Both the position numbers and the translations under genes were made by a program. Under the pieces are notes generated by a model. That model ran no database searches and was not told the origin of the DNA. It saw nothing but the letters and a program-made list of their open reading frames with translations. From a virus, in the UHGV virus genome UHGV-0305822: a stretch of 64,000 bases of DNA; one strand, 5' to 3'. Shown in pieces: positions 6,221-53,500 of the stretch; the stretch's first letter is position 1; every line of letters begins with the position of its first letter.

Positions 6221-6225
6221 CGTTT

Positions 6226-6268
6226 GGGAGAACCTTCGGGTTCTCCCTTTCTTTATTTTTTTCTTTTT
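6226..6268 (+). terminator. intrinsic terminator
   Basis: gggagaaccttcgggttctccc hairpin followed by a T-rich run. Confidence 0.65.
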
Positions 6269-6298
6269 ACACCACACTCCGTCTTTATGGAGGTGGGT

Positions 6299-35656: not shown

Positions 35657-35976
35657 TGGTTACGAACGACAATATCAAGAAAAAGATTGACGAAATTATA
35701 AGCGTCAGTTTAGATAGAATCGAATTAATTCCCGAAACTAAGGAGATCAAATATTACGTTCCTGCGGACGAACTATTTCCAGGTCTTCTTAGAATCTCAC
35801 CAAAAAAGGTTGAAGAGGCTAAACGACAATTCGAAGTTCGTGGCCTTAAGGTTGACATTGTTAACAAAAAACATTTCCATGTAACGTATAGCCAGGAAAA
35901 CATTATATTTAGTCCTGAACAAGCGCAACGTAATTTAGATATTTTAACGAAACGAATGGGGAATAATAACAAATGA
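35656..35976 (+). CDS. hypothetical protein
   Basis: 106-aa ORF with ATGA-type overlaps on both sides. Confidence 0.5.
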
Positions 35977-37007
35977 AACAGTATTTAGCGTTAATGCAAG
36001 ACATTCTGGATAACGGTGTTGTCAAGAAAGACCGCACAGGTGTAGGGACACTATCTGTATTTGGTCGTCAACTACGTTTTGATCTGAAAGAAGGTTTCCC
36101 ATTAGTTACTACGAAGAAGGTTCACCTGAAAAGTATCATTCATGAACTGTTGTGGTTCTTAAACGGTGACACTAACGTGAAGTACCTGCAAGAGAACGGG
36201 GTAAAAATTTGGAATGCATGGAGTGATGAAGAGGGGAACTTAGGGCCAGTTTATGGTAAACAATGGCGCGAATGGCGCGACTGTAAAGTTGTGGAGTGTC
36301 ATGACGTAAGACGTACACAACAACTAATGCAACGGGGTTACAAGTATATTGGGAATATGAAGGAAGATGGTACGACGTATTTGGTTTATGAAAAAGCACA
36401 TGACCAGATCAGCAAAGTTATCCGACAGCTTCGTGAAGACCCTGACTCCCGCCGTATTATCGTTAGCGCCTGGAATGTAAGTGACCTGGACGATATGGCA
36501 CTTAATCCATGTCACAACTACTTCCAGTTCTACACAACGGAAATGACACTGCTTGAGCGACTGGATTGGTACGAAGCAAATGAACCGGAAAAATTTGCGA
36601 ACGCGCCACTTATTAATCACGAAGATATTGATGATGAAGAACGACTTCATGAAACTTTAGATCGTGAAGGTATCCCTCGTCGTAAGCTTTCATGTTTTTA
36701 CATGATGCGGAGCAACGATGTCGCATTAGGAAAACCGTTCAACATCGCGTCATACGCTCTGCTAACTCATGTGGTTGCCCAACAAGTGAATATGGTTCCC
36801 GATGAGTTAGTTTATAGTGGGGTCGATGTGCATTTATATCTGAACCACCTCGATCAAATAAAACTCCAGTTGACACGTGAGCCGTACCCGTTACCTAAAT
36901 TGGTTATTAAACGTAAACCCGAATCTATCTTCGACTACAAATACGAGGACTTTGAAGCAGTCGGTTACCAATCACACCCACACATCGCCATGCCTGTCGC
37001 GGTGTAA
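35973..37007 (+). CDS. thyA: thymidylate synthase (ThyA family) with two in-frame insertions
   Basis: by-eye comparison with E. coli ThyA from memory: MKQYL..DRTG.GTLS.FG...[34 protein letters not shown], catalytic Cys in [40 protein letters not shown]; 344 aa versus 264 aa in E. coli. Confidence 0.85.
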
Positions 37008-38106: not shown

Positions 38107-38940
38107 ATGGGCGAACGTTTTGACATCAACACTATTTACAACATCGTGGTTAATCCTGGTCAACACCTGGAAGAAGTTAACGCACAACTGCGCGCTCTGA
38201 ATGAGAATGCAGTACAGTTCGATGCCATTTACACAATTGGTGTAAACCCTGGTACCAACCGTATTCGTGTAGAAGGTAAACGCCACACCGGTAATCAAGA
38301 ACTGGATATTGAAACGATTGTAGCGCCTATTAAGCTTACCGATGCCGTTTATAACGGTACGGTAATGCATACAGAATCTGTTCTAGTTTGCACGATCGCA
38401 AAATGTGTAAAACTCGTTAAAGGTTGGTCTAAAGAACGTGGTATTCTCGATAACGGTAAACTGGAAACCCAAATCACGAAGTTCTTTGAAGAGTTAGGTG
38501 AAATTGCGGCGGGTATCAGTAAAAACAAACCTGAACTGATCATGGATGGCATTGGTGATGCGTTGGTGGTTCTGGTAAACATCATCGAATTAGGGGATGC
38601 GTATTCTGGTCACCTTACAGTGGCAGAAGACTGCATCGAGTCTGGTCTACGCTTAAACGTGGAAGATGTAGCTGAAGTTGAAGAAAATTTAAACAACGCT
38701 GGATACCCACATCAACAATACCTTCACGCTATTGAAAGTTTTGCCACAACCTTTATGGAAGGTAAAGATCATGGTTTCGATTTCGTTAGCCTGGGTTTAG
38801 CCCATCTTGCCCGCATCGCCTTGTATTACAAACTGGATATTCGCCATTGTTTCTCTTTGGCCTGGCACGAAATCAAAGACCGTAAAGGTTATCTGAACGC
38901 CGACGGTATCTTTGTAAAAGAAGCAGACCTGGCGAAATAA
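38107..38940 (+). CDS. protein with C-terminal MazG-like nucleotide pyrophosphohydrolase domain (tentative)
   Basis: C-terminal half has FEELGEIAAG and IGDALVVLVNIIELGD, reminiscent of MazG/all-alpha NTP-PPase EExxE and DxxGD motifs; N-terminal 100 aa unassigned. Confidence 0.5.
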   Translation: MGERFDINTIYNIVVNPGQHLEEVNAQLRALNENAVQFDAIYTIGVNPGTNRIRVEGKRHTGNQELDIETIVAPIKLTDAVYNGTVMHTESVLVCTIAKCVKLVKGWSKERGILDNGKLETQITKFFEELGEIAAGISKNKPELIMDGIGDALVVLVNIIELGDAYSGHLTVAEDCIESGLRLNVEDVAEVEENLNNAGYPHQQYLHAIESFATTFMEGKDHGFDFVSLGLAHLARIALYYKLDIRHCFSLAWHEIKDRKGYLNADGIFVKEADLAK

Positions 38941-38945
38941 ATAAA

Positions 38946-39000
38946 AGTACCTACCTCCTCTCGGAGGTAGGTAGACTTTCTTATTTTTTTTTCTTTTTTA
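38946..39000. terminator. bidirectional intrinsic terminator between convergent genes
   Basis: tacctacctcctctcggaggtaggtag hairpin followed by a long T-run on plus and A/T-rich flank on minus. Confidence 0.65.
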
Positions 39001-39561
39001 AGCGCCTGGAACAATCCCAGAAGAGATATACGTCAAACCGTCAAGTTCAGTGACTTTAATCAACTTCGAAATATCCTTACCGTCAGACGGCAGCTCTGTT
39101 AAGTACACCTCCAGCCGCCCTGTCCACGCCAAAGATGTCCCATTCATGGTAATGATGGTTTTATCTTTGCTGTCTGGTGCAGCTGTTGGATTCTCAACTT
39201 CGTCGTCAGTAATCTGTAAATTGTACTTATTGCGGAAAAGCTGTAGTACCTCAGATACCGTAGCCGCATTAACACCCGCAACAGAAACTACAAAGTCACC
39301 TAAGAGGTGCTCTAAATCCAAACGACGATAAATAACGTCAATTTTACCAAACGTTTTCTGTTCAATAATTCCCTGGACGCTAAGTTGGGTATTTAATCGC
39401 GTAAATTGGGTTTCTGGTGTTTCTACCGCAGGAATATGTGACGGTGTACCAAAATTCAACTTATCGATTGTAATACCTTTCTCTACCAAACCAGGATTCT
39501 TTTTTACTAATAACTCATAAACCAGTTGTTTTCCTGATTTACCTAATAGCGTATTAGCCAT
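38998..39561 (-). CDS. hypothetical protein (possibly virion-associated)
   Basis: 187-aa minus ORF in an operon with the large minus-strand genes. Confidence 0.6.
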   Translation of the reverse strand: MANTLLGKSGKQLVYELLVKKNPGLVEKGITIDKLNFGTPSHIPAVETPETQFTRLNTQLSVQGIIEQKTFGKIDVIYRRLDLEHLLGDFVVSVAGVNAATVSEVLQLFRNKYNLQITDDEVENPTAAPDSKDKTIITMNGTSLAWTGRLEVYLTELPSDGKDISKLIKVTELDGLTYISSGIVPGA

Positions 39562-39577
39562 TATTTCCTCTCAAACA

Positions 39578-41749
39578 TTAACGTGCTTGCGGCAAGAAGA
39601 TGTTCGCGATCTGGCGTGCTGGAAGCACATCAAACGCAGAGTTAATAAAACTGCCCTGTGACCACGCAGATGCCCAGTTCTGCGCCCAAATACTTCCTTG
39701 GATCTTGGCACGCTCTATACCGTTCGTACGTTCGTACAACGTCGCTGCGCCCAAACACGCCATAAACTCACTGAATTTATTATCGTCGTCCCAAACACCT
39801 GTGTCTGTAACGATGGGCATATACATCACACGGGACAAATCACGGATGGTAACATTGATATCACAAGACAGTGGAACAGAATCACCTGGTCGCCAACCTA
39901 AACCACCCACACCGAATTGTAAAGACAAAGACGTTACGATAGCGTTACGGAACGAGAATCGACCTTGTGAGTAACACTCCAGATAAAACGGATGAGTGAA
40001 CGATTGCTTACCCGTCGCAATTGGACATACTGCGGCGATCCAGAAGGACAGTGGGACTAGAATTTCCTGGAAGATATCCAGGTCACTTCCAGACCACGCA
40101 CGTAAAGGTATTGTCAAGTTAATATCATCGCCTGAAGCATCTGAACTGTCCCACACCTCTGGGAAGTCAATGACGGATGAATTATATAACGACATAATCC
40201 CCGTTAGATGCAACGTATCTGCTAACCCACGCATCACTGACTTAAAGCCCGTAATTAATGAATCGACCGCATTGAAGCCGGTTTGCCCGCCAGACAAGTT
40301 TACTTCAAGTTGACGAGCTTTCGCCGTCATTGAGTTAACTGTGCTAGAAATCTCCGGTTCTTTTGTAGAGTTAGAGAACGAACGAGAGACGGTGTCCTTC
40401 CCATCGATTCTCCAGGTTACCCACTGAGAACCGTTGTAGATTTCGGACAGCGCTTGTGCTTTAATCCCTTCAATCTGTTCGCCAACCACTTTAACAAAGT
40501 CGCCGAAGAACGTCTCCATAGTCGATTCTTTACCTTTATCCGCCCAGGACTGTATCGTATTCTGTTGTCCCTCGGTGAGGTTACTCGCATCGGCATTTTC
40601 CAAATCCTCGTTCATTTTGTTTTGGATTTCTGCCGCCTGCGCCTCTAGGTCGCTTGCTGTTCCCCCAGTTTGTAGCCCGGAACTAAACGCATCGAGAACC
40701 CCTTTTTCCAGTTCATCAACACTATTAATATCTTTGCCAGACGCGTCTTTCGCCGCATAGCCACCGCGCTCGGATGCAGCTAACCGCTCCATGTCTTGCA
40801 AAGAAACTTCGTAATTTCTCACATCGTCAGAATACGAAGCCGCACCATATGTGCTGTCTAAATAGAAATTTCGTATCCGCTCGGCGAGATCGTCGTCACT
40901 TGAGGACTGCTTACGAAGTTCTTTTAAACGTTGATTCTGATAGTTCGCCAGAGTTTGATAACGGTTGATCATCTTAAAGACATCGAATTCACCGTCTTTT
41001 TTCCAAACCTCCGGCAACGCTTCAAACGCATCATCGCGTGCTTTTTTGTTCCCTTTTCCATCGCCATCTTGACTAACCTGGAAAGTACCTAAGATACCCG
41101 TGGGAACCAAACGACGATAAACAAGTTGCGTATTCAAGATGTTCTGTACAGCACGTAAATACAGATGCATCGTCGGTTTAACGTAATAGTAACGCGACGT
41201 TTGTTTATTCAACGCTGCCGCGAGAATACGAGGGGTAATTAAAATTACCGCAAAAGCAACAGTGCCTACAGTGGCCCATATCGCTGCCGCGCCGATATAA
41301 CTTGCTATCGTGCGGATCATTCCCGGATAATCACCCGTACGCGCTAAATACGCTAAGTTGGAATCGTACATATTCGCAAAAAACGCGGCCATACCCAGAT
41401 ATTTCGGCTTGCCGAAACGACAATGTACGTAAAACGAATTTTGGTTAATACTTTCGTAATAATACGTCCCTAAGCGATAAGAAGCGGTTGGCATACCGTT
41501 AGCCAACGCCTTTTTCTCCGCCTCACGATTACCGGGTCGTGCAAACGCCCCTGTTGATGGGGGGTCTGCAAACCACGTAAACTGCGGAGGGCTATTAATC
41601 GCTTTGCTACCGCCCATGGTCGTATCTTCAAAAGACATCATACCGTTAGAGTAGCGTCGCAAGGCCAGAAAACGTTCATCTCGGCCTTCCAACTCTCCCT
41701 TAAATAGATTTCTGACCCAGCTTGAGTCGTTAGCTGATCTAGCGTCCAC
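39578..41749 (-). CDS. large hypothetical protein with internal hydrophobic segment (possibly virion-associated)
   Basis: 723-aa minus ORF, GTG start after agagg; hydrophobic stretch IASYIGAAAIWATVGTVAFAVILITP. Confidence 0.6.
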   Translation of the reverse strand: MDARSANDSSWVRNLFKGELEGRDERFLALRRYSNGMMSFEDTTMGGSKAINSPPQFTWFADPPSTGAFARPGNREAEKKALANGMPTASYRLGTYYYESINQNSFYVHCRFGKPKYLGMAAFFANMYDSNLAYLARTGDYPGMIRTIASYIGAAAIWATVGTVAFAVILITPRILAAALNKQTSRYYYVKPTMHLYLRAVQNILNTQLVYRRLVPTGILGTFQVSQDGDGKGNKKARDDAFEALPEVWKKDGEFDVFKMINRYQTLANYQNQRLKELRKQSSSDDDLAERIRNFYLDSTYGAASYSDDVRNYEVSLQDMERLAASERGGYAAKDASGKDINSVDELEKGVLDAFSSGLQTGGTASDLEAQAAEIQNKMNEDLENADASNLTEGQQNTIQSWADKGKESTMETFFGDFVKVVGEQIEGIKAQALSEIYNGSQWVTWRIDGKDTVSRSFSNSTKEPEISSTVNSMTAKARQLEVNLSGGQTGFNAVDSLITGFKSVMRGLADTLHLTGIMSLYNSSVIDFPEVWDSSDASGDDINLTIPLRAWSGSDLDIFQEILVPLSFWIAAVCPIATGKQSFTHPFYLECYSQGRFSFRNAIVTSLSLQFGVGGLGWRPGDSVPLSCDINVTIRDLSRVMYMPIVTDTGVWDDDNKFSEFMACLGAATLYERTNGIERAKIQGSIWAQNWASAWSQGSFINSAFDVLPARQIANIFLPQAR

Positions 41750-41765
41750 GTTATACCTCTAAAAA

Positions 41766-41790
41766 ACGGGGGTAGTTTCCTACCCCCCTG
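41766..41790 (-). terminator. minus-strand hairpin with U-tract between the giant gene and the downstream gene
   Basis: gggggtag...ctaccccc stem; on the minus strand it is followed by gtttttt. Confidence 0.4.
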
Positions 41791-41796
41791 TTGTTA

Positions 41797-44700
41797 TTAC
41801 GCTGATTTACGACTAACGTCGAGTTGCGGCACGGGTTGAGTTATTGACACGTTACGTGACGCCGAACCCGGAGCGGTTGACGCCGGGTTAGCCGGACCGT
41901 TTTGCATAGCCTGTGGCCGCTGACGAAGAATTGTTACAATCTCTTTCAGATAGCCTGCAGACTCTTTTGCAACCGCCAGCTGTTGTACACTGATCGGATC
42001 ACCACTGTTCACTGTGGAACCGGTCTGAGCATCGGAAGTCACCGTTGGTGCAGGACGGGCCGATTTCTCCATCTGCTGTCTAGCACCCTCTTTTACTTTA
42101 GCAACCTCTTCTTCGGCCAGGCCGTCAGCACGTGCATTTTGACCCACCGTCTCTACAACAACTGACGCATCACTCGGCGTGACATCGCCACCAGGACTCG
42201 GCACAGCCGGACCACCACCCGTTGCAGCTTTAATATCTTCAGCACCCATCGCGCCTTTGTCTGCTAAAGCGGAGTCACGATTCGCTTCGTTCGCGGCTGG
42301 CAGGTTATCTGCCGGGCCTGTGATAGACGGATCGTTAGCAGCGCCTGCAGCGATAGCCGGGGAAGACGGCATTGGCGTTACGCCTGTCGTCAAGTCTTTC
42401 AGCGATGCCTGGTTAGCCGCGATCGCGTTTGTTCCTACGGCACCAATCTTACCACCCATGATGTTGAGCACTTCATCCAAACTACGCAATTTTCCATTCT
42501 TGTAGAAAATTGTGCTGTTTGCCGCGATTTGATCGGCCGACGCACCACGCGACGATGGGCCGTTCGGATCACGCTTCCATTCTTGCAGGAATTTCTTACC
42601 GCCACCTTGTCCTAAGAAGTGGTAGAGGTAAACAGCTGCACCTGGAGGATCGATACCACCTAAATCCTTTCTGGCTTTCTCGATATTATCACGAATATGA
42701 CGGACGCCAAGCAGAGCATTCGCCCACGGGTCATACTGGTTAGTTTGCGGGATACCATAACGTCTCGCATAAGCTTTCATCTGCGCACCCCAGGTATCGT
42801 TGATGAACTGGAACAAGCCAGCCGCAGAACTTCCTTTAGCTTTGATACCGTATCTAAGCCCAGATTCTGCTTGTGCCATTCCCAGTGCTAACGCTGGAGG
42901 AACACCCATCATCTTCGCTACGTCTGTAATCAGTGCTGCAACCGCATTCAAGTTAGGCTTCAATCCGTCACCCAACGTTGAAATTGGATACTTAGCCGCT
43001 AACGTTTTATAGTCACCGTCTTGCATATCGCCAAGTTTCACGCCGAAGTTACCGGTAGTAAATGCAGCGTAATTCTTAGCTCCCATCTGACCGTAAGCAC
43101 CGGCCAAATCGTTTGGTGTGCCGTAATTCCCACCGTCGTTTGCCGCTGGTTGCAATAGGTCACGATAAGAGGAGGAGGTGTTCATCTGTGGTCGAGACGG
43201 TTGCTCCTTCTCATCGTCGGTCAAGAACATCTGAGTCGCGCGATCTTTTCGCTGCCAGTTCACACGGAAACCCGCAGAAGGCGTAGCACGCAGCGTTTTA
43301 CGTACTGCCAAATCAGCTTCCTTAGACAGTTCTTTCAGGTTCTCTAACTCCGTTGCAACTGAACCGGCGTCGGTGTTAGCGTCTCCCCCTAACGGGTTAA
43401 ACGGTACCTCCCACACTGACTGACGAATACCCCCTTTCAGGTTGTATGCACCACGCATCATCAGTGCGATTTCATACAAGAACCCACCCGTAACGCGTAG
43501 GTCCATCGGATCGGCAGCAGGGACATAACGTTTCACCCCAACCACGTACGTCATGAAGACAGGTAAGAAGCGGTTATAGAACCAGTTCTTGTACCGATCT
43601 TCTTTTGGCCCACCAATGGCGTCAGGCGCAATCACCGCAATCGCACGTTTCCAGTCGCCTTTATACGTACAGCTTTTCACATCGGTGTCTTGCAACACTT
43701 GACGTTCCAAGAGCGTATATAGGTTACGGGTTGTTTGAGTAATGCTCACCGCACCATAAGCTTTCAACCTTACGGACTCCAAATCACGGAGATCGGTTTC
43801 TTTAGGTAAACTTCTCCAGTCGACTTGAACCTGAACTTGTTCGGTGCCGTCTTCCCAACCTTCAACTTTCGCAACTTCTTTGTTGCGTTCCGCATCCGCT
43901 TGAGCCAACGCTTGGGTCGATTCTGCCACAGAAGCAACTTTGTGTCCTTCGGCCACACCGCCTGTAGCATTTACATCCTTACGTTTTTCATCACGACGCA
44001 TGTTAATCGAACGAAGCACGCGTTCTTGCGCTTCAACGACTTCTTCGCCTGACAAAAACTCGGCCGGGGTAAACGTTACGAAATCCCACGCTTTAGAGAA
44101 CCAACCTTGGTTAACCTTGCGGGGATCTTCTAATGCACGGAATGCAGGCGCATCTTTCGACATCTTCATTTTGTTGAAGATATTCAACATGTCTGCCTTC
44201 GACACTTTCGCAGGATTACCGACATCTGCTAACGCGATATCATTATCCATGGATTTCAGTGCTGTAATCCAACGTAAATAGATCGGCACAAAACGTTGTA
44301 GCATAAACGCACTAAACGCCAGCATTTCGCCTTTGTCTTCTACGTTAGTACCAAACCCTTCGGCCAGTTTCTTCACGTCGTCACCGGACAAACCACGCAA
44401 CTGTGCTTGACCATTCTCTGTATAAGAGATATACGGTTTCAAGTTGTCTTCTAAATAACGTGCTTTTGCGCCATCATCGGAAGACCATTCGTCGTGATCT
44501 CTAAATCCGTACTGTGCCAATCGCATGTTATCCAGATACTGGGCATTCACACGGGTTGCAGTTTTATACGCAAACCAAGACAACGCAGCGCCTGCAGCAA
44601 CCAAACCGATAATCGGCCAGCCAACCGCAGTTACCACTGCAGATGCTGCCGTCGCGACAGCACTCACCGCAGGAACAGCCAAACGGGTCACAGCAAACTT

Positions 44701-47700
44701 ACCAACGTTCCACAACGCTTTACCTGCAAACCCAACCGGCTTAAAGATTCCCCATTTTGCGACTTTACCTAAGATTGAACCCACTGTGCCTAAAATACTC
44801 ACAATCGGCCCTACCAACGGCAGTCCTTTAAGGAAATCCATTACCCCACGTTTACCGCCTTTCTTCTCAGCCTCTTTCTTAGCCTTTTCCTCTTCCTTAG
44901 AGCGACGACGGCGTCGGAAGAACTGGAAGTAATCGCGTTTTTCATCACTGGCAGGTGGCTTGTTACGTTGACCGAACTTACTGAACATGGTTCTTAACAA
45001 ACCATCCGAAGCACCTGCTTTTTCCGCAGAATCACGCATGGTATTAAACCACGACATTTCCTGAAGATTAACCATTCGGTTCAGGCGTTCCAGTAAAGCC
45101 GACCCAACGCTACGGGCTTTCTGTTTCCCTTTATTAATCACACGTCCAGCGCTATCCGTTACGGTGTCTAAGTCTTCTTTTGCCGCATCGATGATACGTG
45201 TTTTAGACACCTTGCCTCTTGCGTAGATGTGTTGACGATAAAACTCAGCAACGTCGTCATCGCGTCCTGCTAAACGACTCTCCATTCGATAACGTGTTCC
45301 AATGTCGTAACGCGGATCACGGAAGGTATCGACCATATCGCTTGCACGACCACGGAAACGGTCAAACCAATCACGTGCTGCACCACCCCAACGAGAAAGA
45401 CGACCACCTACCGCACTACGGTAACGGGACATTCTGTCACGCATCCGACCACGCCAATCCCGGAACCCTTGAAAATGTTCACGGAATCCTTCGCGTATGT
45501 CCTTAGCACGTTGGAATAATCCTTTAACTGAACTGGCCCCCGTATTCCGCTCCATCTGTTCTGTCCAGGTGTCATCTTCAGGTTCACCTGGCAATCTCCG
45601 GTTAAGGAGTTTGTAGATACGGATTAGGATGTGGTTAGTTTTACGGCCATTCGACCACGAGAACACACTAAACCCACCACCAGAGCCCCCTTCCTTACGG
45701 TTCTGCCACCAACGTGTCAACGGATTATCAGAAGCCAACTCTTTGAGCTTCTCAAACCCACGTTTTGCATTGTTCCACAGACGAGCTGGCATTCCCGTTA
45801 CACGGGAAATCATGCTTTGTAAACGGGTTTTCTCTGCGCCCTCTGGAACCTCATTTAACCACTCGCGTGCTTTCTCGAACAACGAAGCCGCTTTAGGCGA
45901 AATGAAACCCAGAAGTTTCTTCGGTAAAGTCACAGCTTTGTTTACCGCCGTTCCTGCCTTCCCAGAAATGTACTGGAAAAGCGCTTGAACTTTACCGCCT
46001 TTGTAGAAACGCAGTTTACCTGCGGCAGCCAAATCAGCAGCAGCTAAGATTAAATTACCCGCCTCGTCGACGATGTCACGTCCCAGTTTAATATCGTCGA
46101 GAGTTTTAAGTTGAATCAGCTTCTCAGTTTTCGGGTCAGCCTGGTAATATTCCCCAGCTTCTAAACGACTTCCTTGTAATACGACGTTACCACGTTCATC
46201 GTAGATGTCGCGAACACCTAAAACGCCTTTACCGAAAGCTACAGCAGAATTCCAACCGGTCGATAATGTACCGGTTACTAACCCTTTCAGTCGGCTAAAT
46301 ACGCCGGGACCTTCGGAGGAACCGCCTGAGAATTTCCCACGAATAAAACCACCTAATGCTTGTAGGCGATCTTTCCCACGTAGGAACAGATTCTTACCAA
46401 ACCGTCCTACACCTGAACCGGTATCCCAAAGCACCCCAGCCCAGCGACGTAACAAACCTGTCTCGCCTAGTACAATACGTTTGCGCTTACGACGACGTTT
46501 ACGACCCGATTCACTCGAACTTTCAGGTTCGTCACCGTCATCACGGCTACCGCCTAAACTGGCCAGAAGAATACCTTCCTCATCCATGTTCTTAACGTGT
46601 TTGAGGATATCTTGCACTGTGCTAGATTCAGGCTGTTTACGTACCGCATCAATCAAACGATCGAATTGCTGCTCCAGTCCAGCGTTCGTATCTGGACGGC
46701 TGCTTAAGAGCTCAACAAAGTTGGTGGATTTCTCTCCATAAAGTACAGCAGCGAGTTGACGGGCGCTTAAACCGCGACCGCGACCACCTTTTCCACCACC
46801 ACGTACGTTAGACAGTTCTTTGTCTTCAAAGCTCGGCTCTGCACCTGCACCCATCCGACGCAAGTAATCACCCAACGCAGAACCATTTTGCAGCTTACGT
46901 TGAATCTCTTGCTCACGGGTTAACGAACGACCAGAGCGGGTCTTACCCATCGACAGGTCGTTAAATAGCGTATAGGGATCGTTAATGTCCTTATCGACTT
47001 CGAAAATGTCGTTCTTCGCATCGTATTTAAAAATGCCGGAGTCGCGAAGTGCGTTCTCGCCGTAAATCACAGACGCAGCATCAACCGTGTCTTGACGTGC
47101 ACGAATCGTTGACTGGATAGCGGCGATTTTGTTTGAAATCGCGTTGCTCAGTTCATGGTGACCGCCAACCAGTTCCGCAGAACGGGCTTCTAAAACACCC
47201 TGAATCGCTTCCACAGCGTTTGCGTTCATGTACCGATACATGTGCATCGGGTCTTTCAATAAAGACCCTACATCGAACGCTTTCCCTTCTGAGGCACGAG
47301 ACTCGATGTAGTCCGCTAACGCTTGACGTGTTTTCCTATCGAGCGTTTTATCTTTATCGATAAAGTCGACAGTGTCGTTGATGTACGTCTGTAAACGTTT
47401 GCGCTGATCGTCATTAGCAACGGCCTTACGTACACGATTACCAATGACTTTACGATCCACCATACCGCGCGTGGTCAGGTCATAAACCTGATCGTGGTGT
47501 TCGCCATACCCACGACGAATAGATTTGTTAATCTCGGACAGTAACGTCGGAATAACTTCGGTGATACTAAGGTAAGCTTTACGATCGAATTTCGCCGCGG
47601 CAGAAAGAGATTCCGCAGAACGATCGTCTAATGCTAAGGTTTCGCGACGTAGCGGGTTAACTAGCCCCAATTCGTGCATTAGTCGAAACAGATCAGCTAA

Positions 47701-48921
47701 CGGACCGCTTGTTTCTCCCGCTATTGCCGAGTTAGAAATAGACGACAGATTTCCAAAGCCATACTTCGCCAACTGTAGGCGTTTCATGACTTCTGGGTTT
47801 TTCTCTAACTCGCCACGGGTCCAGTTCTGAAGACGTTCGATCTGTGGTTGTAAGAGACGTTTTGCTAACCAACCACCTGCAAAACCTGCCGCTTTATTAC
47901 GCGAGTTTGTGTTACGACGGTCAGGAGACAACGATGAGCTGTCCGACATGTCAAAGTCATCTTCCTGAGCCATCCCTAGAACTTGTTCTAGAATCCCACG
48001 ACCATCACTAAAGATGTTCGAGATTTTCTTCTTCGCGTTTTCGCGAATCTGACCAATGAAATTGTCTGCGTAGTGTAAGGGGTTCATCCACTCCGCAGCT
48101 TTACGTTTTACATTAGCCCAACGAATTTCAGAAAACTCTTCCTTCGCGTAGTCCGGTAGTGCTGTGTTCTTAACGATGGCTTCTAATGCCGGGGTGTTGC
48201 GTGCAAACTCGTCTTGTTTGAGTTTCGCAATATCCTGCAAAGCGAACAATGTCCGATATTGCAGCTCTAACTGCTTACGCTGAACATTCAACAACACGCC
48301 ACGACTTAAGCTAGTCGTTAAGTTGACGTCTTTCGCAATACCGATTACGGTCTGGAACAGCGCGTCGGACTTCATGTCCTTAATCGTGTCGCGCAAGCGG
48401 TCTTCAACCATCCCCTCTTGCATCTCACGTTGCTGGTCCGCTGTTTGCGGTGCACCTGAGAACACGCTGTCCAGCTCACGATCCATCATCGCCTGTTTAG
48501 GATCGTAATTCCCATAGTCGATTTGATCGTTACGTGCCCACTTGTCGATTTTCCGTGTTACGGATTCCGGTAAATACCGTTTCAGTGTTGGGCCTAACTG
48601 TCTCGCTTGCATCTTAACGACGCGAGACGTCTTTTCAATCTCGTCTTTCGTATGGGCCAGAATGTCTTGACCTGCGGCTTTAACGTTTTGATAGCCTTCG
48701 TAGGCTTCTGCCGCAGGTTTAGGCATCCCTTTTAAAATAACCTGATCACGTTTGTTTTCGGGCCAGATAGTCGACAACGCCGACTTACGGGCAGCACGAA
48801 ATGTGTCCATGACCGGGTTACGCGATTGGTCTTGTTGACGAGGGGGCTCATCAAAATCGTCCCAGTCGTCCATGTTATCAAGATCGATTTCATCGAAATC
48901 ATCTTTACCTTTTTTAGCCAT
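41797..48921 (-). CDS. giant virion-type protein (2374 aa) with C-terminal-region SLT lytic transglycosylase domain
   Basis: SLT motifs ...LGMAQAESGLRYG...AAGLFQFINDTWG... encoded at about 42560..42930; internal hydrophobic cluster; poly-basic tracts (SGRKRRRKRKR, FRRRRRSKEEEKAKKEAEKKGGKRG); size and domain order as I recall for phiKZ gp181-type proteins. Confidence 0.8.
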   Translation of the reverse strand: MAKKGKDDFDEIDLDNMDDWDDFDEPPRQQDQSRNPVMDTFRAARKSALSTIWPENKRDQVILKGMPKPAAEAYEGYQNVKAAGQDILAHTKDEIEKTSRVVKMQARQLGPTLKRYLPESVTRKIDKWARNDQIDYGNYDPKQAMMDRELDSVFSGAPQTADQQREMQEGMVEDRLRDTIKDMKSDALFQTVIGIAKDVNLTTSLSRGVLLNVQRKQLELQYRTLFALQDIAKLKQDEFARNTPALEAIVKNTALPDYAKEEFSEIRWANVKRKAAEWMNPLHYADNFIGQIRENAKKKISNIFSDGRGILEQVLGMAQEDDFDMSDSSSLSPDRRNTNSRNKAAGFAGGWLAKRLLQPQIERLQNWTRGELEKNPEVMKRLQLAKYGFGNLSSISNSAIAGETSGPLADLFRLMHELGLVNPLRRETLALDDRSAESLSAAAKFDRKAYLSITEVIPTLLSEINKSIRRGYGEHHDQVYDLTTRGMVDRKVIGNRVRKAVANDDQRKRLQTYINDTVDFIDKDKTLDRKTRQALADYIESRASEGKAFDVGSLLKDPMHMYRYMNANAVEAIQGVLEARSAELVGGHHELSNAISNKIAAIQSTIRARQDTVDAASVIYGENALRDSGIFKYDAKNDIFEVDKDINDPYTLFNDLSMGKTRSGRSLTREQEIQRKLQNGSALGDYLRRMGAGAEPSFEDKELSNVRGGGKGGRGRGLSARQLAAVLYGEKSTNFVELLSSRPDTNAGLEQQFDRLIDAVRKQPESSTVQDILKHVKNMDEEGILLASLGGSRDDGDEPESSSESGRKRRRKRKRIVLGETGLLRRWAGVLWDTGSGVGRFGKNLFLRGKDRLQALGGFIRGKFSGGSSEGPGVFSRLKGLVTGTLSTGWNSAVAFGKGVLGVRDIYDERGNVVLQGSRLEAGEYYQADPKTEKLIQLKTLDDIKLGRDIVDEAGNLILAAADLAAAGKLRFYKGGKVQALFQYISGKAGTAVNKAVTLPKKLLGFISPKAASLFEKAREWLNEVPEGAEKTRLQSMISRVTGMPARLWNNAKRGFEKLKELASDNPLTRWWQNRKEGGSGGGFSVFSWSNGRKTNHILIRIYKLLNRRLPGEPEDDTWTEQMERNTGASSVKGLFQRAKDIREGFREHFQGFRDWRGRMRDRMSRYRSAVGGRLSRWGGAARDWFDRFRGRASDMVDTFRDPRYDIGTRYRMESRLAGRDDDVAEFYRQHIYARGKVSKTRIIDAAKEDLDTVTDSAGRVINKGKQKARSVGSALLERLNRMVNLQEMSWFNTMRDSAEKAGASDGLLRTMFSKFGQRNKPPASDEKRDYFQFFRRRRRSKEEEKAKKEAEKKGGKRGVMDFLKGLPLVGPIVSILGTVGSILGKVAKWGIFKPVGFAGKALWNVGKFAVTRLAVPAVSAVATAASAVVTAVGWPIIGLVAAGAALSWFAYKTATRVNAQYLDNMRLAQYGFRDHDEWSSDDGAKARYLEDNLKPYISYTENGQAQLRGLSGDDVKKLAEGFGTNVEDKGEMLAFSAFMLQRFVPIYLRWITALKSMDNDIALADVGNPAKVSKADMLNIFNKMKMSKDAPAFRALEDPRKVNQGWFSKAWDFVTFTPAEFLSGEEVVEAQERVLRSINMRRDEKRKDVNATGGVAEGHKVASVAESTQALAQADAERNKEVAKVEGWEDGTEQVQVQVDWRSLPKETDLRDLESVRLKAYGAVSITQTTRNLYTLLERQVLQDTDVKSCTYKGDWKRAIAVIAPDAIGGPKEDRYKNWFYNRFLPVFMTYVVGVKRYVPAADPMDLRVTGGFLYEIALMMRGAYNLKGGIRQSVWEVPFNPLGGDANTDAGSVATELENLKELSKEADLAVRKTLRATPSAGFRVNWQRKDRATQMFLTDDEKEQPSRPQMNTSSSYRDLLQPAANDGGNYGTPNDLAGAYGQMGAKNYAAFTTGNFGVKLGDMQDGDYKTLAAKYPISTLGDGLKPNLNAVAALITDVAKMMGVPPALALGMAQAESGLRYGIKAKGSSAAGLFQFINDTWGAQMKAYARRYGIPQTNQYDPWANALLGVRHIRDNIEKARKDLGGIDPPGAAVYLYHFLGQGGGKKFLQEWKRDPNGPSSRGASADQIAANSTIFYKNGKLRSLDEVLNIMGGKIGAVGTNAIAANQASLKDLTTGVTPMPSSPAIAAGAANDPSITGPADNLPAANEANRDSALADKGAMGAEDIKAATGGGPAVPSPGGDVTPSDASVVVETVGQNARADGLAEEEVAKVKEGARQQMEKSARPAPTVTSDAQTGSTVNSGDPISVQQLAVAKESAGYLKEIVTILRQRPQAMQNGPANPASTAPGSASRNVSITQPVPQLDVSRKSA

Positions 48922-48950
48922 AACGTTTAATCCGTATCAGGAGATTTAGC

Positions 48951-50570
48951 GTGAATAAACTTAATTGGGTTGACTTTTATCTGCTCAATGTAAACAAGTC
49001 TCTTGTGTCGCGATTACGACCCGTCACGACCACGGATACTTTCCAGGGGTTAACAAAAAACTTTCACCCCGAAGGTCTTTACTCTACAGAGATATTTGGA
49101 CTCACGGGGAGTGAAGCGCGAGACTCTACTTTCTCTTATATCGATATTAAACTCGATATCATTTCGCCGACGGTGTGTTTGGCGTTATTCCAACTCAAAC
49201 AACTCTACGAAGAAATTTGTTCTGGAAAACGCTACGCAACGTGGAGCGAAAAAGAAAAAGATTTCGAACCGGCCTTGCCGGGAGACCCAGGCGCAGATAC
49301 CGGTTTTAACTTCTTCCTCAGTCACTATAACGATTTAAAACCTAAGCGTAACGAGTCCCTACAACGTGACGAAACCGTGGATTTCTTTTTGAAATTCCGT
49401 CCCGTTAGTCTTAGTCGATACGTTCTCGTGTTACCCGCGGGTTTACGCGATTTAGTAATTCGACAAGATGGTAGAGAACAGGAAGAAGAAATCGGCGGGA
49501 TGTATCGTCGGTTGGTATCACTCGCCAGGGCGATCCCTGACCGAGCAACCCGTGTTGAATTAACTAACCCCGTACGCTGGAAGCTGCAACAAACCTTCAA
49601 CGATATCTGGATGTATTTCTTTAACATCCAAGACGGTAAAGGGGGTTTCCAACGTCGTAAAGTGACGTCTCGTAAATTAATGAACGGGACACGTAACGTA
49701 CTGTCCTCGTTCTCGACGGGGTCTAAGTGCATGGGTCGTGAAGACGCTATTCGTCCCACCGACACCAAAATTGGTTTATACCAGGGTTTAAAAGCATTAC
49801 TCCCCGTTGCGCAATACCAGATACGTGAACGTTACCTCGGTAACATCCGTGCTGGTGACGGCAACCTTTACGGCGTAAACACCAAAACCCTTAAACGTGA
49901 ATTCTTGGAAGTAGGTGGTCGTGTATACGACACCTTTACCACCGACGATGGGATTGAATCCTTAATCAACCGAATGGAAGCTCGCGAGCTTCGCCATCAG
50001 CCGATTATGTTGGACGACACCCACTACGTTGCGTTGGTTTACCAAGACACCAAACATTTTAAGGTGTTCTACGATATTGAAGAACTTCCTAAAACGTTTG
50101 ACCGAAAATTCGTTCACGGTATGACGCTCGTCGAATTGCTTTATTTGTCGGGCTACGAACTTTGGAACGATTATTTCGGTTTCGTTACACGTTATCCCGT
50201 TACAGGCCGAGGCTCGACGTATTCATCGACCATAAGATTGGAGACCACCACATCATCTTTATACTTAAAAGAACTGGAAGATGACTGGGAAACTGAAAAA
50301 CCCCGAGGGGCTATCAGCTACCCTGACCGGTCGGTTCCTACCTTCGTTGAGTCTATGGCACCACACCCCTCACGTCTAGGTGGCTTAGGGGGTGACTACG
50401 ACGGCGATACCGGGTCGTTTAACGCGCCCATGTCCCAGGAAGCGCTCGAGGAAAACCGGAATTGGATACACTCGAAAAACTACTGGTTCGATTCTGATGG
50501 GAACTTTAAAATCAATCCTATCAACAACGTGATTAAACGTGCAACGCAAGCGTTATTAAAGAACCCATAA
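48951..50570 (+). CDS. multisubunit RNA polymerase beta-prime-like subunit, N-terminal half including catalytic site (phage split RNAP)
   Basis: FHPEGLYSTEIFG resembles beta-prime KPERDGLFCARIFGP; VLVLPAGLRDLV resembles LPVLPPDLRPLV; GKGGFQRRKV resembles GKQGRFRQNL; DYDGD at 50394..50408 resembles NADFDGD; GTG start after aggag. Confidence 0.7.
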   Translation: MNKLNWVDFYLLNVNKSLVSRLRPVTTTDTFQGLTKNFHPEGLYSTEIFGLTGSEARDSTFSYIDIKLDIISPTVCLALFQLKQLYEEICSGKRYATWSEKEKDFEPALPGDPGADTGFNFFLSHYNDLKPKRNESLQRDETVDFFLKFRPVSLSRYVLVLPAGLRDLVIRQDGREQEEEIGGMYRRLVSLARAIPDRATRVELTNPVRWKLQQTFNDIWMYFFNIQDGKGGFQRRKVTSRKLMNGTRNVLSSFSTGSKCMGREDAIRPTDTKIGLYQGLKALLPVAQYQIRERYLGNIRAGDGNLYGVNTKTLKREFLEVGGRVYDTFTTDDGIESLINRMEARELRHQPIMLDDTHYVALVYQDTKHFKVFYDIEELPKTFDRKFVHGMTLVELLYLSGYELWNDYFGFVTRYPVTGRGSTYSSTIRLETTTSSLYLKELEDDWETEKPRGAISYPDRSVPTFVESMAPHPSRLGGLGGDYDGDTGSFNAPMSQEALEENRNWIHSKNYWFDSDGNFKINPINNVIKRATQALLKNP

Positions 50571-50579
50571 GGCTAAGCA

Positions 50580-53500
50580 ATGCTGCTCATTAAACAGTTT
50601 AACCAACGCTTCTCGGTGCGTAAAACTGACGAGTTTGGTAATCCGAGGATTATCCCGCTCGAGAAGCTACAGATACCACGTGGTTCTGTACTCCATGTCA
50701 TTGATCTCGACCAGGTGGTATTAGCGCCACCTGCAACACTCGAGATTATTCAACCGTTAGAAAAACCTGCACAGGTTCGTCACCACTTTAAATTACCGGA
50801 AGACGGTATTAGCGGCCATCCGCGCAACAAACCTGTTCAGGGCCAAGAACGTGCTATCTTTGCCTACCACCGTGCAAACCGCCCGATGCGTCGTCTTACC
50901 TCAGACGATCTGGTTCGCAAAGACTTAAAAGTTCTCCTGGTCGAGAACTACACACCAATGCTATCGCACTACTACTATCCTGACACCCAGTTAGCCTGGT
51001 ACGATAGACTGCGTAACATCCAACTGTTGATGATTAACCAGTTCAAATACGACACGCAAGAATACATGCGTCAGAACTATTTCGTTATTGAACTGGGTTC
51101 GACTCTACCTTCGTTCCAGAAGTTTCAAACAACCTATAACGACCGCGTTAAGAGCAAGATTGAGAAGTTCCAGGACTTCAACTTGCTGTGGCTATTGGAG
51201 TTGTTTGCTTGGGCTTATGGAAAACAATCCGATTCCTTATTCTCGGGAATGGATTTAACTCAGCTGTCACGAATGAACTTTATCTTCACCCACAACACGG
51301 GCTTTACGTCCATGAACATGGGTGTTGTAGAGAAAATGCGTAAGTCGTCCGGCGGTCGTTTAAGTGACGACCAAATGGCCAGGATGTTCTACCGTACGCT
51401 GGTGCGTGTAATGACACAAGCACCGTCTAACGCGTACGAAGCGGAATTCCTAACGCCTGAAGGTGACGAGCGTGTTTTCCTTAAAGACGTCGAAGAAGAA
51501 ACCGTTGATGTTGTCGACGATGACGATGTTGTTAATGACGCTGTGGTGGAATCCGATAACACCTTCGATGAAAAAGAAGACGTTGTTATTGAAGAACCGA
51601 AGGAAGACGTCAAACCGACGACCATCGTCGTCGAGAAAGTCATTCCGCACGACGAGATTATTAAACAGGAAGCACAACGCTTAGCTGAAGCGGGCCGCTT
51701 AAGTTCTAAAGCATATCAGTTCCTGTCAGAATCGTCTAAACGTTTCGTTCAGCTGCCTAACCCGTATAACCCGAAAGAAACCTACGGGGAAGCACTGACT
51801 GTTCACGAGAAAGATATCGTCGTTAAGGCCGAACCGAAAAAAGTTCAGCGGCTTGTTACCGATGAAGGGTGGGCAGAGAACGTCACCGACCAAATGGTGA
51901 AACAATACAACCAGACCATGATGACCAAAGACGTACTGGCGGCGGTCGCCAGTTCACAACGTTTGGGTCTGGCGGTTCACAACCACACGGTGGAAAAAGA
52001 AGTTTCTGTTACAGGAACTATCGAGCACCACACTTTACGTGTTCAGCCAGTCGGTGGTGAGCCAACAACAGTTCGCTTCTCTATCCCGGGCTTGACCGAG
52101 GACGGTACTTGGGTCGCTAATGGTGTCGAATACACCATGCGTCGCCAACGTGTGGACTTACCGATTCGTAAGGTTGCACCGGATACTGTCGCACTGACTA
52201 CCGCCTACGGTAAAAACTTTGTCCGTCGTAGTGATAAGGTCGCGAACGATTACGGTCGTTGGTTAACCAACGCGATTATCACACGCGCCGTTGACCCGAC
52301 AAACACCGAAGTCACCGATGCACGTTTAGCAAATGTGTTCGATCCTACGCAACATCTGCCTCGTCAGTATACGGAGATTGCACGTCGTATTGCCAGCTTT
52401 AATGCGAACGGCTATATGTGGAACTTCGACTACAAAGAAACCGTTAACTTCTTTAACGACGAGCAACTCAGAGACGCCGATGCTGCCAAACTTCTGCCAG
52501 TGGCGAAACGTCCGCGTAGTGAAACAATCCTGGCAATGGATGACAAATCCATGCTTTACGGTGTAAAAGGAAACAAAGTTGAACCGGTGGGGACTATCGC
52601 AGAGGTACTGGGCTTTAATAACCAGAAAGTGCCTCGCGAAATGACCGAGCTGTCTTTGATGGGTAAATCTTTGTCGCTTGGTTTTATCTTCTCGTTCTAT
52701 CTTGGACTCCAGGGAATGTTGAAACATTTCGGTATCCAGTACGAGTTGGTTCCTACAGGACAGCGTGTTGATAAGAATGCCTACGACAGTATTATTCGAC
52801 TACAAGACTGTAAACTTTTAGTTACTTGCGATAACGATCAGCAGAGGATGATTCTGCATGGTTTGGATCGCTATCTCAAACACCTGGTTGCTTATACCGA
52901 ATCAGAAGCAGACCGAGAAGACATTTACCTGAACTTATTACGTGAAGCAGATGGCCTAACACCACGGTACATCAACGAGCTGAAACAGATGCGGTCCGCG
53001 TTTGTTGACGACATGCACGCACGTATCCTCAGGAAAATGGGTGAGCCGGAAACCTTTATTGGCTTGCTGGAACGTTCTAACGAACTGTTACAAACCGACC
53101 ACTCTTTACCAGAGATTAACGGCGATGAAATGATGTTCTTAGGAAATCAGAGGATTGCCTACCACATCTATACTGCGATGGTCAGAGCGATGCGTAACTA
53201 CAATAACGCACCGGGCAGTAACCGTAAGTTCGAACTGACGCAAGACATGGTTTGGGGTGCTATTAACTCCGACCCGTCGGTACTTTTGGCACCAGGCGCT
53301 AACCCTATCCAGTCAATTAAAGAAAAAGACGTTATTACGATGGGGGGTACAGGTGGTCGTAATCGTAAAACGATGGTCTACCACACGCGTGAGTTCCAAC
53401 CCAGTGATATCGGGATAGTCTCGGGTAACACCGTAGATAACGGCGACGTAGGGATTACTGCTTTCGTCACCAATAACCCACGTTTTGACACCGTTGACGG

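Follow-up and report, generated by a model that had tools for sequence, protein, structure and literature searches.

The gene at positions 41797..48921 (minus strand) of the 64,000-nt window, i.e. of the whole stretch of DNA analysed, codes for a 2374-aa protein that probably acts in the tail of a phiKZ-like jumbo myophage as a tape-measure-type protein carrying its own virion lysin, and that would be expelled and insert into a membrane. Judged from its sequence, this protein is a full-length ortholog within the phiKZ gp181 / SPN3US gp239 / Goslar gp204 family (PHROG 3201) and is a new member of an already known protein family. Its source is a so far undescribed jumbo myophage, phiKZ-like and related to Chimalliviridae, and for a phage of this type the gene is nothing unusual.

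Gene, locus and family

The gene and its immediate surroundings comprise the following features.

41797..48921, minus strand: whole gene, 2374 aa plus stop, a single ORF with an ATG start
41768..41787, minus strand: terminator-like hairpin, 8-bp stem with 6 G-C pairs, followed by GTTTTTT
39578..41749, minus strand: co-oriented downstream gene of 723 aa, homolog of phiKZ gp182 and Goslar gp203

The N-terminus MAKKGKDDFDE... is kept in the aligned homologs, indicating that the annotated ATG start is right. The hairpin is found 10 nt past the stop codon, ahead of the next gene; in scans for sigma-70 promoters and terminators, sites were no commoner than in shuffled sequence. Neither the 2374-aa protein nor its two downstream neighbours gave a match in an NCBIfam search (E<=0.1).

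The assignment to the family arises from a full-length match to PHROG 3201 (E=0, 2091 bits) and from tblastn searches, in which the protein shares 59-60% identity over 100% coverage with those of Erwinia phage Asesino and of Salmonella SPN3US-like phages, the Seoulvirus and Erskinevirus proteins being the nearest described relatives at this level, and 24% identity with phiKZ gp181 (PHIKZ181). Goslar gp204 is a homolog as well. In total, 111 homologs of 2200-2570 aa were found, and the family alignment was built from 89 sequences with MAFFT FFT-NS-2. Besides full-length homology and a similar size (2237-2373 aa), the phiKZ gp181 family shares with the 2374-aa protein the order of its modules (helical N-terminal part, hydrophobic cluster, twin domain, lysin and C-terminal tail), the catalytic Glu/Tyr pair, and a location between the vRNAP beta subunit gene and the spacer-ring gene. 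Indeed, a divergent vRNAP beta subunit gene, the lysin/tape-measure gene and a gp182-like gene follow each other in 13 jumbo phages, and the locus studied here has the same arrangement, with the divergent vRNAP beta subunit gene upstream and the gp182-like spacer-ring gene downstream. The product of the latter is similar to phiKZ gp182 (E=8e-35) and Goslar gp203 (E=5e-69), which have been described as the baseplate 'spacer' ring and as part of the tail-tube initiator complex, respectively; by cryo-EM, both belong to a ring lying between tube initiator and hub (PMC13250141; 10.64898/2026.04.21.720040).

The corresponding tail protein of relatives is essential, present in few copies and of demonstrated muralytic activity, and it goes by the name of tape measure. 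The 259-kDa SPN3US gp239 is present in virions, is lost or depleted in tailless particles and was named tape measure (PMC5105663, PMC10052503, PMC5694885); presence in the virion or tail was shown by mass spectrometry for this ortholog (PMC5105663, PMC10052503) and for Goslar gp204. From published mass-spectrometry data, the copy number of Goslar gp204 can be estimated at ~3.4-8 per virion, being compatible with 3 and with 6.

These data bear on two other readings of the gene. The one nearest to the wording of the first-pass annotation is an internal protein of the T7 gp16 type, packaged in the head and ejected, perhaps binding the genome through its basic tracts. T7 gp16 is likewise a large, ejected virion protein with an SLT domain that was proposed to span the envelope, the 2374-aa protein is of large size and carries such basic tracts, and phiKZ-like phages eject many head proteins. 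Nevertheless, tailless, DNA-filled heads of SPN3US lack the ortholog or contain strongly reduced amounts of it (PMC5105663, PMC10052503), which argues for a tail component, the gene is in conserved synteny with a baseplate gene, and the basic tracts are not conserved. In addition, the likeness to gp16 is confined to the SLT domain, found at the N-terminus of gp16 but at the C-terminus of the 2374-aa protein. All in all, this reading is very unlikely. The second one, a tail fiber protein, is the label of many GenBank records and of PHROG 3201, and propagated annotation is all that speaks for it. It is hardly credible, as the protein is helical rather than beta-rich, carries a membrane module and a lysin, and occurs in ~3-8 copies per virion in Goslar. 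Moreover, cryo-EM assigns the fibres of phiKZ (gp131-135) and Goslar to other proteins, thereby contradicting a tail fiber identity. The analysis of the 2374-aa protein hence corrects an annotation that is widespread in this family.

Hydrophobic cluster, twin domain and lysin

From the middle of the protein to its C-terminus, five parts can be delineated.

44566..44847, minus strand: aa 1359-1452, Gly/Ala/Val-rich hydrophobic cluster, putative membrane-insertion module
43942..44565, minus strand: repeat A of the twin domain, aa 1453-1660 (core ~1459-1603)
43312..43809, minus strand: repeat B of the twin domain, aa 1705-1870 (core ~1710-1847)
42427..42951, minus strand: SLT / family-1 lytic transglycosylase domain, aa ~1991-2165
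41800..42426, minus strand: Ala/Gly/Pro-rich variable tail, aa 2166-2374, with three predicted helices (2209-2234, 2251-2288, 2310-2333)

A long hydrophobic Gly/Ala-rich stretch had been pointed out in the middle of the protein, the sequence quoted at that time corresponding to aa 1370-1452, and both run-length shuffles and family conservation confirm it as aa 1359-1452. The cluster consists of a first segment (~1366-1388), a Lys-interspersed amphipathic one (1389-1413) and a last one (1414-1452) interrupted by a conserved G-W-P. It contains the two longest runs of the protein devoid of charged or strongly polar residues, of 39 aa (1414-1452) and 20 aa (1366-1385). In only 2 of 2000 shuffled versions of the protein was an uncharged run of at least 39 aa reached, while a peak Kyte-Doolittle value of 2.0, as seen here, is not unusual by itself (222 of 2000 shuffles). 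The best 21-mer has a Hessa-scale value of +3.2 kcal/mol, which reflects a marginal hydrophobicity, unlike that of a classical Sec-type transmembrane helix. The position and composition of the cluster, followed by the motifs AYKxATR...RLAQYG, are kept in all 21 family members inspected, so that it can hardly be due to chance; compared to the 2374-aa protein, the module is less hydrophobic in phiKZ and PhiPA3. The AF2 monomer gives no confident structure for aa 1359-1452.

Between this membrane module and the lysin lies a tandem-duplicated domain, conserved across the family and newly noticed in phiKZ gp181-type proteins. The duplication is revealed by profile-profile comparison only, since a plain self-BLAST of the protein detects no internal repeats, and Pfam scans of 13 twin-domain sequences returned noise only. 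Invariant residues are R1467, A1469, Y1471, G1472, E1491, R1543, F1544 and L1549 in repeat A, and R1718, Y1722, G1723, E1739, W1780, R1784, F1785 and P1787 in repeat B. The duplicated domain occurs in at least 1240 sequence clusters.

The SLT domain, already noticed near the C-terminus by the first-pass annotation, is borne out by the domain search: PF01464 scores 29.9 bits against a curated cut-off of 21.3, and is the sole Pfam match at E<=1 in the whole protein. The region has a lysozyme-like helical fold and was compared with the family-1 lytic transglycosylases Slt70, MltC/E and gp144. The codons of the catalytic E2019-S2020 start at 42867 (minus strand), and E2019-S2020, Y2098 and H2101 align with E115, Y197 and H200 of the phiKZ endolysin gp144, all of them conserved to 90% or more among 36 sequences. 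As its catalytic residues are intact, the domain is predicted to be muralytic. In the same line, muralytic activity of a phiKZ gp181 fragment was reported (Briers 2008, as cited in PMC5380687 and PMC8700119). Whereas gp144 (PDB 3BKH), an endolysin of 260 aa, carries a peptidoglycan-binding domain at its N-terminus, the SLT domain of the 2374-aa protein is embedded near the C-terminus of a structural protein. Among relatives, GH19, VanY, glucosaminidase or CHAP modules take the place of SLT, for instance a GH19 chitinase-like lysin in Goslar and some others, such swaps being expected of a lysin module carried by a structural protein.

An older assignment of phiKZ gp181 is that of a needle-like cell-puncturing device located below the baseplate and analogous to T4 gp5, which has a lysozyme-type domain too. 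The table of one review indeed lists gp181 as 'needle-like cell-puncturing device', with reference to Briers 2008 and Fokine 2008 (PMC5380687). However, in the phiKZ cryo-EM atlas gp164 is assigned as the spike, gp163.1 as the tip and gp101 as the hub, with gp13 and gp48 as Goslar equivalents, which contradicts a needle-like device. Besides, the AF2 models contain 2% strand and neither an OB fold nor a (trimeric) beta-helix. This assignment is thus highly improbable.

At the extreme C-terminus, beyond the lysin, the motif TQPxPxLxVSRKxx is conserved and represents a candidate hub-docking peptide, as judged from the alignment.

Helical N-terminal part, tail length and basic tracts

Upstream of the hydrophobic cluster, the following features were mapped.

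48817..48921, minus strand: aa 1-35, acidic N-terminal tip MAKKGKDDFDEIDLDNMDDWDDFDEPP, net charge -8, predicted disordered
47587..48816, minus strand: aa 36-445, long-helix region, 80% helix, helices of 34-45 residues, low-medium pLDDT
46942..47586, minus strand: aa 446-660, compact mostly helical domain, confidently predicted (pLDDT 80-88)
46477..46503, minus strand: aa 807-815, poly-basic tract RKRRRKRKR inside the poorly conserved linker aa 661-900
45997..46221, minus strand: aa 901-975, small conserved beta-rich domain, pLDDT 70-78
44848..45996, minus strand: aa 976-1358, helical strongly basic region, net charge +32, 221-504 aa long in relatives
44848-44916, minus strand: aa 1336-1358, RRRRR plus K-rich tract at the end of the preceding region

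The acidic character of the tip is kept in most family members, aa 200-300 form the best conserved N-terminal block, and the comparison of the fold of aa 446-660 gave no known relative. According to AF2, 65% of aa 1-1358 is helical, with many helices of 30-67 residues and low pLDDT, a combination typical of extended helices; on the basis of these models, aa 36-445 are a candidate part of the 'ruler'. Such a long, mainly alpha-helical extended region and a gene adjoining a tube-initiator-type gene are both traits of tape-measure proteins. The predicted span, which amounts to 133 nm when the 887 helical residues are counted and to 198 nm when all 1323 residues are taken at 1.5 Å each, brackets the tubes of phiKZ (162 nm) and Goslar (180 nm). 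In the 68-Å lumen given in the phiKZ paper, the computed occupancy is 0.16 or 0.32 for 3 or 6 copies, respectively, and both fit.

A different reading of the length data would make the protein a 'pilot/lysin' of the tail lumen or baseplate cavity, ejected and acting on the envelope but not setting the length, which another factor would fix, the tape-measure label being a matter of annotation. In support of it, the phiKZ tube (43 rings of 37.73 Å) and the Goslar tube (46 rings of 39.16 Å) differ in length by 11% whereas their proteins are equally long up to repeat A (~1355 aa); in this comparison, limited to two measured tubes, protein and tube length show no proportionality. Moreover, 2374 aa is about twice what the rule of 1.5 Å per residue requires for a tube of 160-180 nm, no tape-measure model of Pfam or NCBIfam matches the protein, the Foldseek matches to proteins labelled tape measure were not significant, and no length-mutant experiment was found for the family in the literature searched. 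On the other hand, the protein is the longest tail gene product, largely helical, of low copy number and essential, its gene adjoins that of the tube-initiator ring, and the SPN3US, phiKZ and Goslar papers name no alternative tape-measure candidate. Since ~60% of the protein suffices as a ruler, the surplus length is not contradictory either. Taken together, these data render the non-ruler reading unlikely and favour a tape-measure-type protein. Neither the 2026 phiKZ atlas (40 proteins) nor the Goslar cryo-EM model mentions a family member, and a PDB search with the family profile matched SLT domains only; given this absence from the two models, we still infer length determination and lumen location.

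Several Arg/Lys-rich tracts had also been reported for the protein, and these are real (aa 807-815, 1150-1230 and 1336-1358, that at 1150-1230 being Arg-rich): nine K/R in ten residues, as around aa 807-815, were reached in 1 of 2000 shuffles. Compared to phiKZ, the poly-basic tracts are longer and aa 651-1358 are far more positive, with a net charge of +46, against +2 in phiKZ and -18 in Vibrio phage YongMS31. This positive charge is conserved only in the Seoulvirus/Erskinevirus/Machinavirus/Derbicusvirus clade, and the tracts occupy the regions of lowest conservation and are missing in distant members of the family. Conservation of RKRRRKRKR is limited to the clade and to its four C-terminal residues, which are part of the motif KRKRIVLGETGLLRRWAGVL. 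As Pfam and NCBIfam searches detect no DNA- or RNA-binding domain and the basic tracts are clade-specific, the nucleic-acid binding previously proposed for the protein is unsupported and is rejected here. More likely, the tracts contribute to electrostatic packing within the tube or to contacts with membrane/LPS.

Proposed route across the host envelope

In the model favoured here, 3 or 6 copies of the tape-measure-type protein would lie inside the tail tube, their conserved extreme C-terminus docked at the hub/tube-initiator end, beside the ring encoded by the adjoining gene, and their ~1350-residue, mainly helical N-terminal part extending up the tube. Upon sheath contraction and departure of the spike, the protein would be expelled C-terminus first, ahead of the DNA. 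The SLT domain would then cut peptidoglycan locally, and the Gly/Ala-rich, marginally hydrophobic module, previously shielded by the tube, would insert into a host membrane, where it may help to form or anchor the passage through which the DNA and the co-injected proteins travel.

Membrane insertion, ejection order and stoichiometry, as well as envelope spanning by phiKZ gp181-type proteins, are what we infer from better-characterized systems. The setting of the gene next to the gp182-like gene resembles that of T4 gene 29, which adjoins the tube-initiator genes 48 and 54. Lambda gpH and T4 gp29 share with the proposed model a lumen-resident, low-copy and helical protein ejected before DNA, but gpH (853 aa) and gp29 (~590 aa) are much shorter, are devoid of a lysin domain and show no sequence similarity. 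The closest mechanistic analogues are T5 pb2 and lambda gpH, and it is by analogy with them alone that ejection, envelope spanning and wall digestion can be proposed. Both leave the tail ahead of the DNA and enter or traverse the envelope, and pb2 additionally degrades peptidoglycan (PMC10038345, PMC12617516). More precisely, in gpH a Gly-rich region lies close to the C-terminus, transmembrane stretches are weakly predicted and a C-terminal peptide is bound to the hub protein gpI, and gpH* forms a trans-envelope channel (PMC12617516). As for pb2, it displays the same order of parts as the 2374-aa protein, namely a coiled-coil/helical ruler, a hydrophobic stretch compatible with transmembrane insertion, a muralytic domain and a C-terminal hub-binding peptide, and it is expelled at infection, its hydrophobic part being proposed to form a membrane channel and its lysin part to digest peptidoglycan (PMC10038345). 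The two proteins nevertheless share no sequence similarity: pb2 is a siphophage protein of 1219 aa with a metallopeptidase lysin, cleaved after R1127, whereas the 2374-aa protein has an additional ~400-aa tandem-duplicated domain and is twice as long relative to the tube. Of the role initially suggested for the latter, that of an ejected protein spanning the envelope, digesting the wall and binding nucleic acid, the first two activities thus agree with a virion-protein family, an intact muralytic domain, a membrane-like module and the analogues, but the third does not stand. The resemblance to phiKZ-like tail tape-measure proteins had not been recognised in that first reading.

Of the large, essential tail proteins, this family alone is lacking in the near-complete 2026 phiKZ and Goslar cryo-EM models, which makes it an obvious candidate for bringing the genome and co-injected proteins across the envelope into a membrane vesicle. 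More speculatively, and with a small chance of being correct, the hydrophobic module and the twin domain would be a chimallivirus-type adaptation of the tape measure that, once expelled, inserts into the inner membrane and nucleates or gates the membrane-bound early-infection (EPI) vesicle, which receives the genome and the virion RNA polymerase. A protein length twice that needed for a ruler would then be explained. The 2026 Goslar structure paper names the shaping of the vesicle during injection as an open question, and an EPI-vesicle proteomics preprint does not mention gp181. The anatomy mapped here provides concrete targets for mutagenesis and for focused cryo-EM/cryo-ET in tractable relatives such as SPN3US.

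Family, neighbourhood and tail location

A single ORF at window positions 41797..48921 (-) encodes a protein of 2374 aa that belongs to an already known family, the one of phiKZ gp181, SPN3US gp239 and Goslar gp204, and its match to PHROG 3201 runs from end to end (E=0). By tblastn, it matched 261 of 50,697 phage records, with 59-60% identity at 100% coverage in the Erwinia phages Asesino and Stratton and in Salmonella SPN3US-like phages, and 24% identity to PHIKZ181, the product of orf181, the largest gene of phiKZ. In a collection of 5.8 billion proteins, 96-99% identity was found only to proteins of Logan assemblies (public sequencing runs, e.g. SRR18827323), and the phage is therefore undescribed. 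The following neighbourhood, with the beta-subunit gene divergent upstream and the gp182-like gene directly downstream, is kept in 13 of the 13 relatives examined.

Genes flanking the giant gene
39578-41749 (-), gp182-like gene, 723-aa ORF, directly downstream; PHROG 3181 ('unknown function')
48951-50570 (+), virion RNA polymerase beta-subunit gene, divergent, upstream
50580-54746, gene of the larger virion RNA polymerase subunit, beyond the beta-subunit gene

The downstream product matches phiKZ gp182 (E=8e-35) and Goslar gp203 (E=5e-69), which 2026 cryo-EM structures assign to a hexameric spacer/tube-initiator ring lying between tail tube and hub (PMC13250141; 10.64898/2026.04.21.720040), gp182 being the 'spacer' that separates the hub from the tube initiator gp88 (PMC13250141). 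The Goslar homolog of the giant protein, gp204 (L014 418-7176), is alike in architecture and synteny. The divergent starts lie 29 bp apart (48922-48950; giant gene ATG 48921 (-), polymerase beta GTG 48951 (+)), a spacing identical in Asesino, and since it is so short, both promoters must overlap coding sequence. Ten nt past the giant-gene stop codon, a terminator-like hairpin, GGGGGTAGGAAACTACCCCC, followed by GTTTTTT (41768-41787 (-)), precedes the GTG start codon of the gp182-like gene by about 20 nt, and may attenuate read-through from a low-copy to a six-copy gene.

Work on relatives has demonstrated that the protein is located in the tail, essential, present in low copy number and muralytic. 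SPN3US gp239 (259 kDa) is a virion protein named tail tape measure, missing from the tailless particles that a gp64 amber mutant produces, and reduced in a tube mutant (PMC5105663, PMC5694885, PMC10052503). Goslar gp204 (248.7 kDa; 'tail protein', 'putative chitinase') was estimated at 3.4, 5.1 or 8.0 copies per virion (Table S4; 10.64898/2026.04.21.720040), and a C-terminal fragment of gp181 is cited as having high muralytic activity (Briers 2008, cited in PMC5380687, PMC8700119). Part of the interest of the family comes from its lack of a model in current structural atlases: the phiKZ atlas, with 40 proteins modelled, mentions neither gp181 nor a tape measure (PMC13250141), the Goslar preprint likewise has no model of gp204 (10.64898/2026.04.21.720040), and a PDB search with the whole-family profile returned SLT domains only, and no chain for the other parts. 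The 2374-aa protein has no match to the curated tape-measure families of Pfam and NCBIfam. The 'tail fiber' label (PHROG, GenBank) and an older identification as a 'puncturing needle' are contradicted by the cryo-EM assignments, in which the spike, tip and hub of the phiKZ puncturing device are gp164, gp163.1 and gp101 respectively (PMC13250141), and by the predicted all-helical structure.

Anatomy of the 2374-aa protein

Residue conservation in sets of 89 and 36 sequences, together with two AlphaFold2 models (58% helix, 2% strand overall), delimits the following segments.

Segments of the protein
aa 1-35 (window 48817-48921 (-)), acidic, Asp-rich, net -8; predicted disordered
aa 36-445, 80% helix in helices of 34-45 residues, low-medium confidence; holds the most conserved N-terminal block
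aa 446-660, compact domain, confident (pLDDT 80-88)
aa 661-900, poorly conserved linker carrying the first basic tract
aa 901-975, small conserved beta-rich domain
aa 976-1358, helical and basic, of variable length (221-504 aa among relatives)
aa 1359-1452, hydrophobic cluster (pLDDT <30 as monomer)
aa 1453-1870 (window 43312-44565 (-)), two confident domains (pLDDT 80-90)
aa 1871-1990, variable linker
aa 1991-2165, SLT domain (pLDDT about 90)
aa 2166-2374, variable Ala/Gly/Pro-rich tail, three helices

[quoted passage not shown] At the extreme C-terminus, TQPxPxLxVSRKxx is conserved, its Arg in at least 90% of sequences. The raised G+C of 42001-48000 (0.485-0.516, vs about 0.42-0.46 over most of the window) and the strongly negative plus-strand GC skew across the giant gene fit an Ala/Gly/Arg-rich composition and minus-strand coding.

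The long mid-protein hydrophobic Gly/Ala-rich stretch noticed in the first-pass annotation (aa 1370-1452) is real, and lies within a 94-residue cluster, aa 1359-1452, in which A, V, G, L and I predominate. Of all runs in the protein that lack charged or strongly polar residues, the two longest (39 and 20 aa) fall in this cluster; an uncharged run of 39 aa was reached in only 2 of 2000 shuffles of the protein, and the Kyte-Doolittle maximum of 2.0, reached in 222 of 2000, is alone unexceptional. The best 21-mer scores +3.2 kcal/mol on the Hessa scale; hydrophobicity is therefore marginal, which would fit a segment that has to remain soluble while the virion is assembled, inserting only once released. 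In all 21 members inspected, the uncharged stretch ends in [GA]Y-x-AYK-x-AT, with RLAQYG within about 10 residues; the phiKZ and PhiPA3 versions of the stretch are weaker (KD19 1.1-1.2).

The Arg/Lys-rich tracts proposed at the same time also exist.

Basic tracts
aa 807-815, RKRRRKRKR (9/10 K/R in 1 of 2000 shuffles)
aa 1150-1230, Arg-rich zone
aa 1336-1358, RRRRR and a K-rich stretch

Net charge over aa 801-1400 is +52. Across aa 651-1358, positive charge (+30 to +80) is limited to the Seoulvirus/Erskinevirus/Machinavirus/Derbicusvirus clade, the equivalents elsewhere having +2 (phiKZ), -10 (P0056, a family member) and -18 (YongMS31), and only KRKR of the first tract is conserved, inside the clade motif KRKRIVLGETGLLRRWAGVL. 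Sequence comparison thus indicates that the family as a whole shares the hydrophobic module but not the basic tracts, and the suggested nucleic-acid binding finds no support, the charge being confined to one clade.

Directly after the cluster, aa 1453-1870 is, judging from a profile-profile comparison of aa ~1459-1603 with aa ~1710-1847 (hhalign probability 97.8%, E=1.3e-12, 132 columns), a tandem duplication of a ~140-aa domain, both repeats sharing the invariant motifs R-x-x-x-Y-G ... E ... R-F-x-P. Out of 1.84 billion searched, at least 1240 cluster representatives matched a profile of this region at E<=0.001, 469 of them at E<=1e-30. The best 150 matches are nearly all 2100-2700 aa long and have the start of the domain at aa ~1230-1820, and because they share size and position the architecture is fixed. 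The twin domain has no Pfam match, and a search for structural relatives identified none. The conserved, putative membrane module and the twin domain may bear on chimallivirus genome delivery into a membrane vesicle.

Lysin module and proposed mode of action

A domain search bears out the SLT domain noted near the C-terminus: PF01464 is the sole Pfam match (aa 1999-2085, 29.9 bits, cut-off 21.3). Its closest solved relative is the phiKZ endolysin gp144, also present in the 2026 PDB entry 9xps, chain S. E2019, Y2098 and H2101, at least 90% conserved among family sequences, align with gp144 Glu115, Tyr197 and His200, which are implicated in catalysis (PMC5406664). Homology, synteny, domain anatomy and catalytic-residue conservation are direct observations for the 2374-aa protein. 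Since six gp144 copies are wedged among sheath, terminator and whisker ring (PMC13250141), an SLT-type lysin domain occurs twice in the phiKZ virion. Among relatives (the family members P0041-P0045, P0087, P0106, P0107 and Goslar gp204), SLT is swapped for GH19 (PF00182) or for VanY (PF02557) with glucosaminidase (PF01832); others add CHAP, having CHAP+VanY+SLT instead of SLT alone. Because of these replacements and additions, the lysin is an exchangeable cassette.

T5 pb2 has the same order of parts: helical ruler, hydrophobic stretch, muralytic domain and conserved C-terminal peptide. In pb2, this peptide is trimeric and occupies the cup of the hub, pb2 itself is metastable inside the tube until receptor binding leads to expulsion, and a 46-residue hydrophobic stretch and the C-terminal enzyme are proposed to form a membrane channel and to digest peptidoglycan, respectively (PMC10038345). 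In lambda, gpH* likewise makes the trans-envelope channel; gpH contains a region rich in Gly, and its C-terminus is bound to the hub (PMC12617516). By analogy, the 2374-aa protein may act like pb2 and gpH, being expelled C-terminus first after sheath contraction, so that the ejection, envelope spanning and wall digestion put forward in the first-pass annotation are reasonable. It would be placed in the tail lumen, not the head; this location, length determination, membrane insertion and stoichiometry are inferred.

As a ruler, aa 1-1358 would reach 133 nm if helical residues alone are counted and 198 nm if every residue is (1.5 A each), bracketing the tubes of phiKZ (162 nm; 43 rings x 37.73 A; PMC13250141) and Goslar (180 nm; 46 layers, rise 39.16 A; 10.64898/2026.04.21.720040), whereas the full 2374 aa are about twice what a ruler would need. 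Between these two phages, the only ones compared, tube lengths differ by 11% and protein lengths do not.

Other features of the window

At the position of 38998-39561 (-), an equal-length 187-aa gene of the near-identical Logan contig L015 has a precomputed match to PF25613 (DUF7941), a family that the Goslar preprint describes as abundant in virions, specific to chimalliviruses and possibly fibre-forming (10.64898/2026.04.21.720040); BLAST found no similarity of the 38998-39561 product to phiKZ gp183 or gp184. Between this gene and the convergent 38107-38940 (+), a palindromic hairpin (38948-38973; 11-bp stem, T-runs on both sides) looks like a bidirectional terminator. Otherwise the window carries genes that are usual in phiKZ-like jumbo phages.

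Other genes of the window
6224-8803 (+), SbcC-like nuclease subunit
18275-19795 (+), RNase H-like ribonuclease
25919-27415 (+), UvsX-like recombinase
35973-37007 (+), thymidylate synthase
38107-38940 (+), MazG-like pyrophosphatase
57323-58126 (+), head maturation protease
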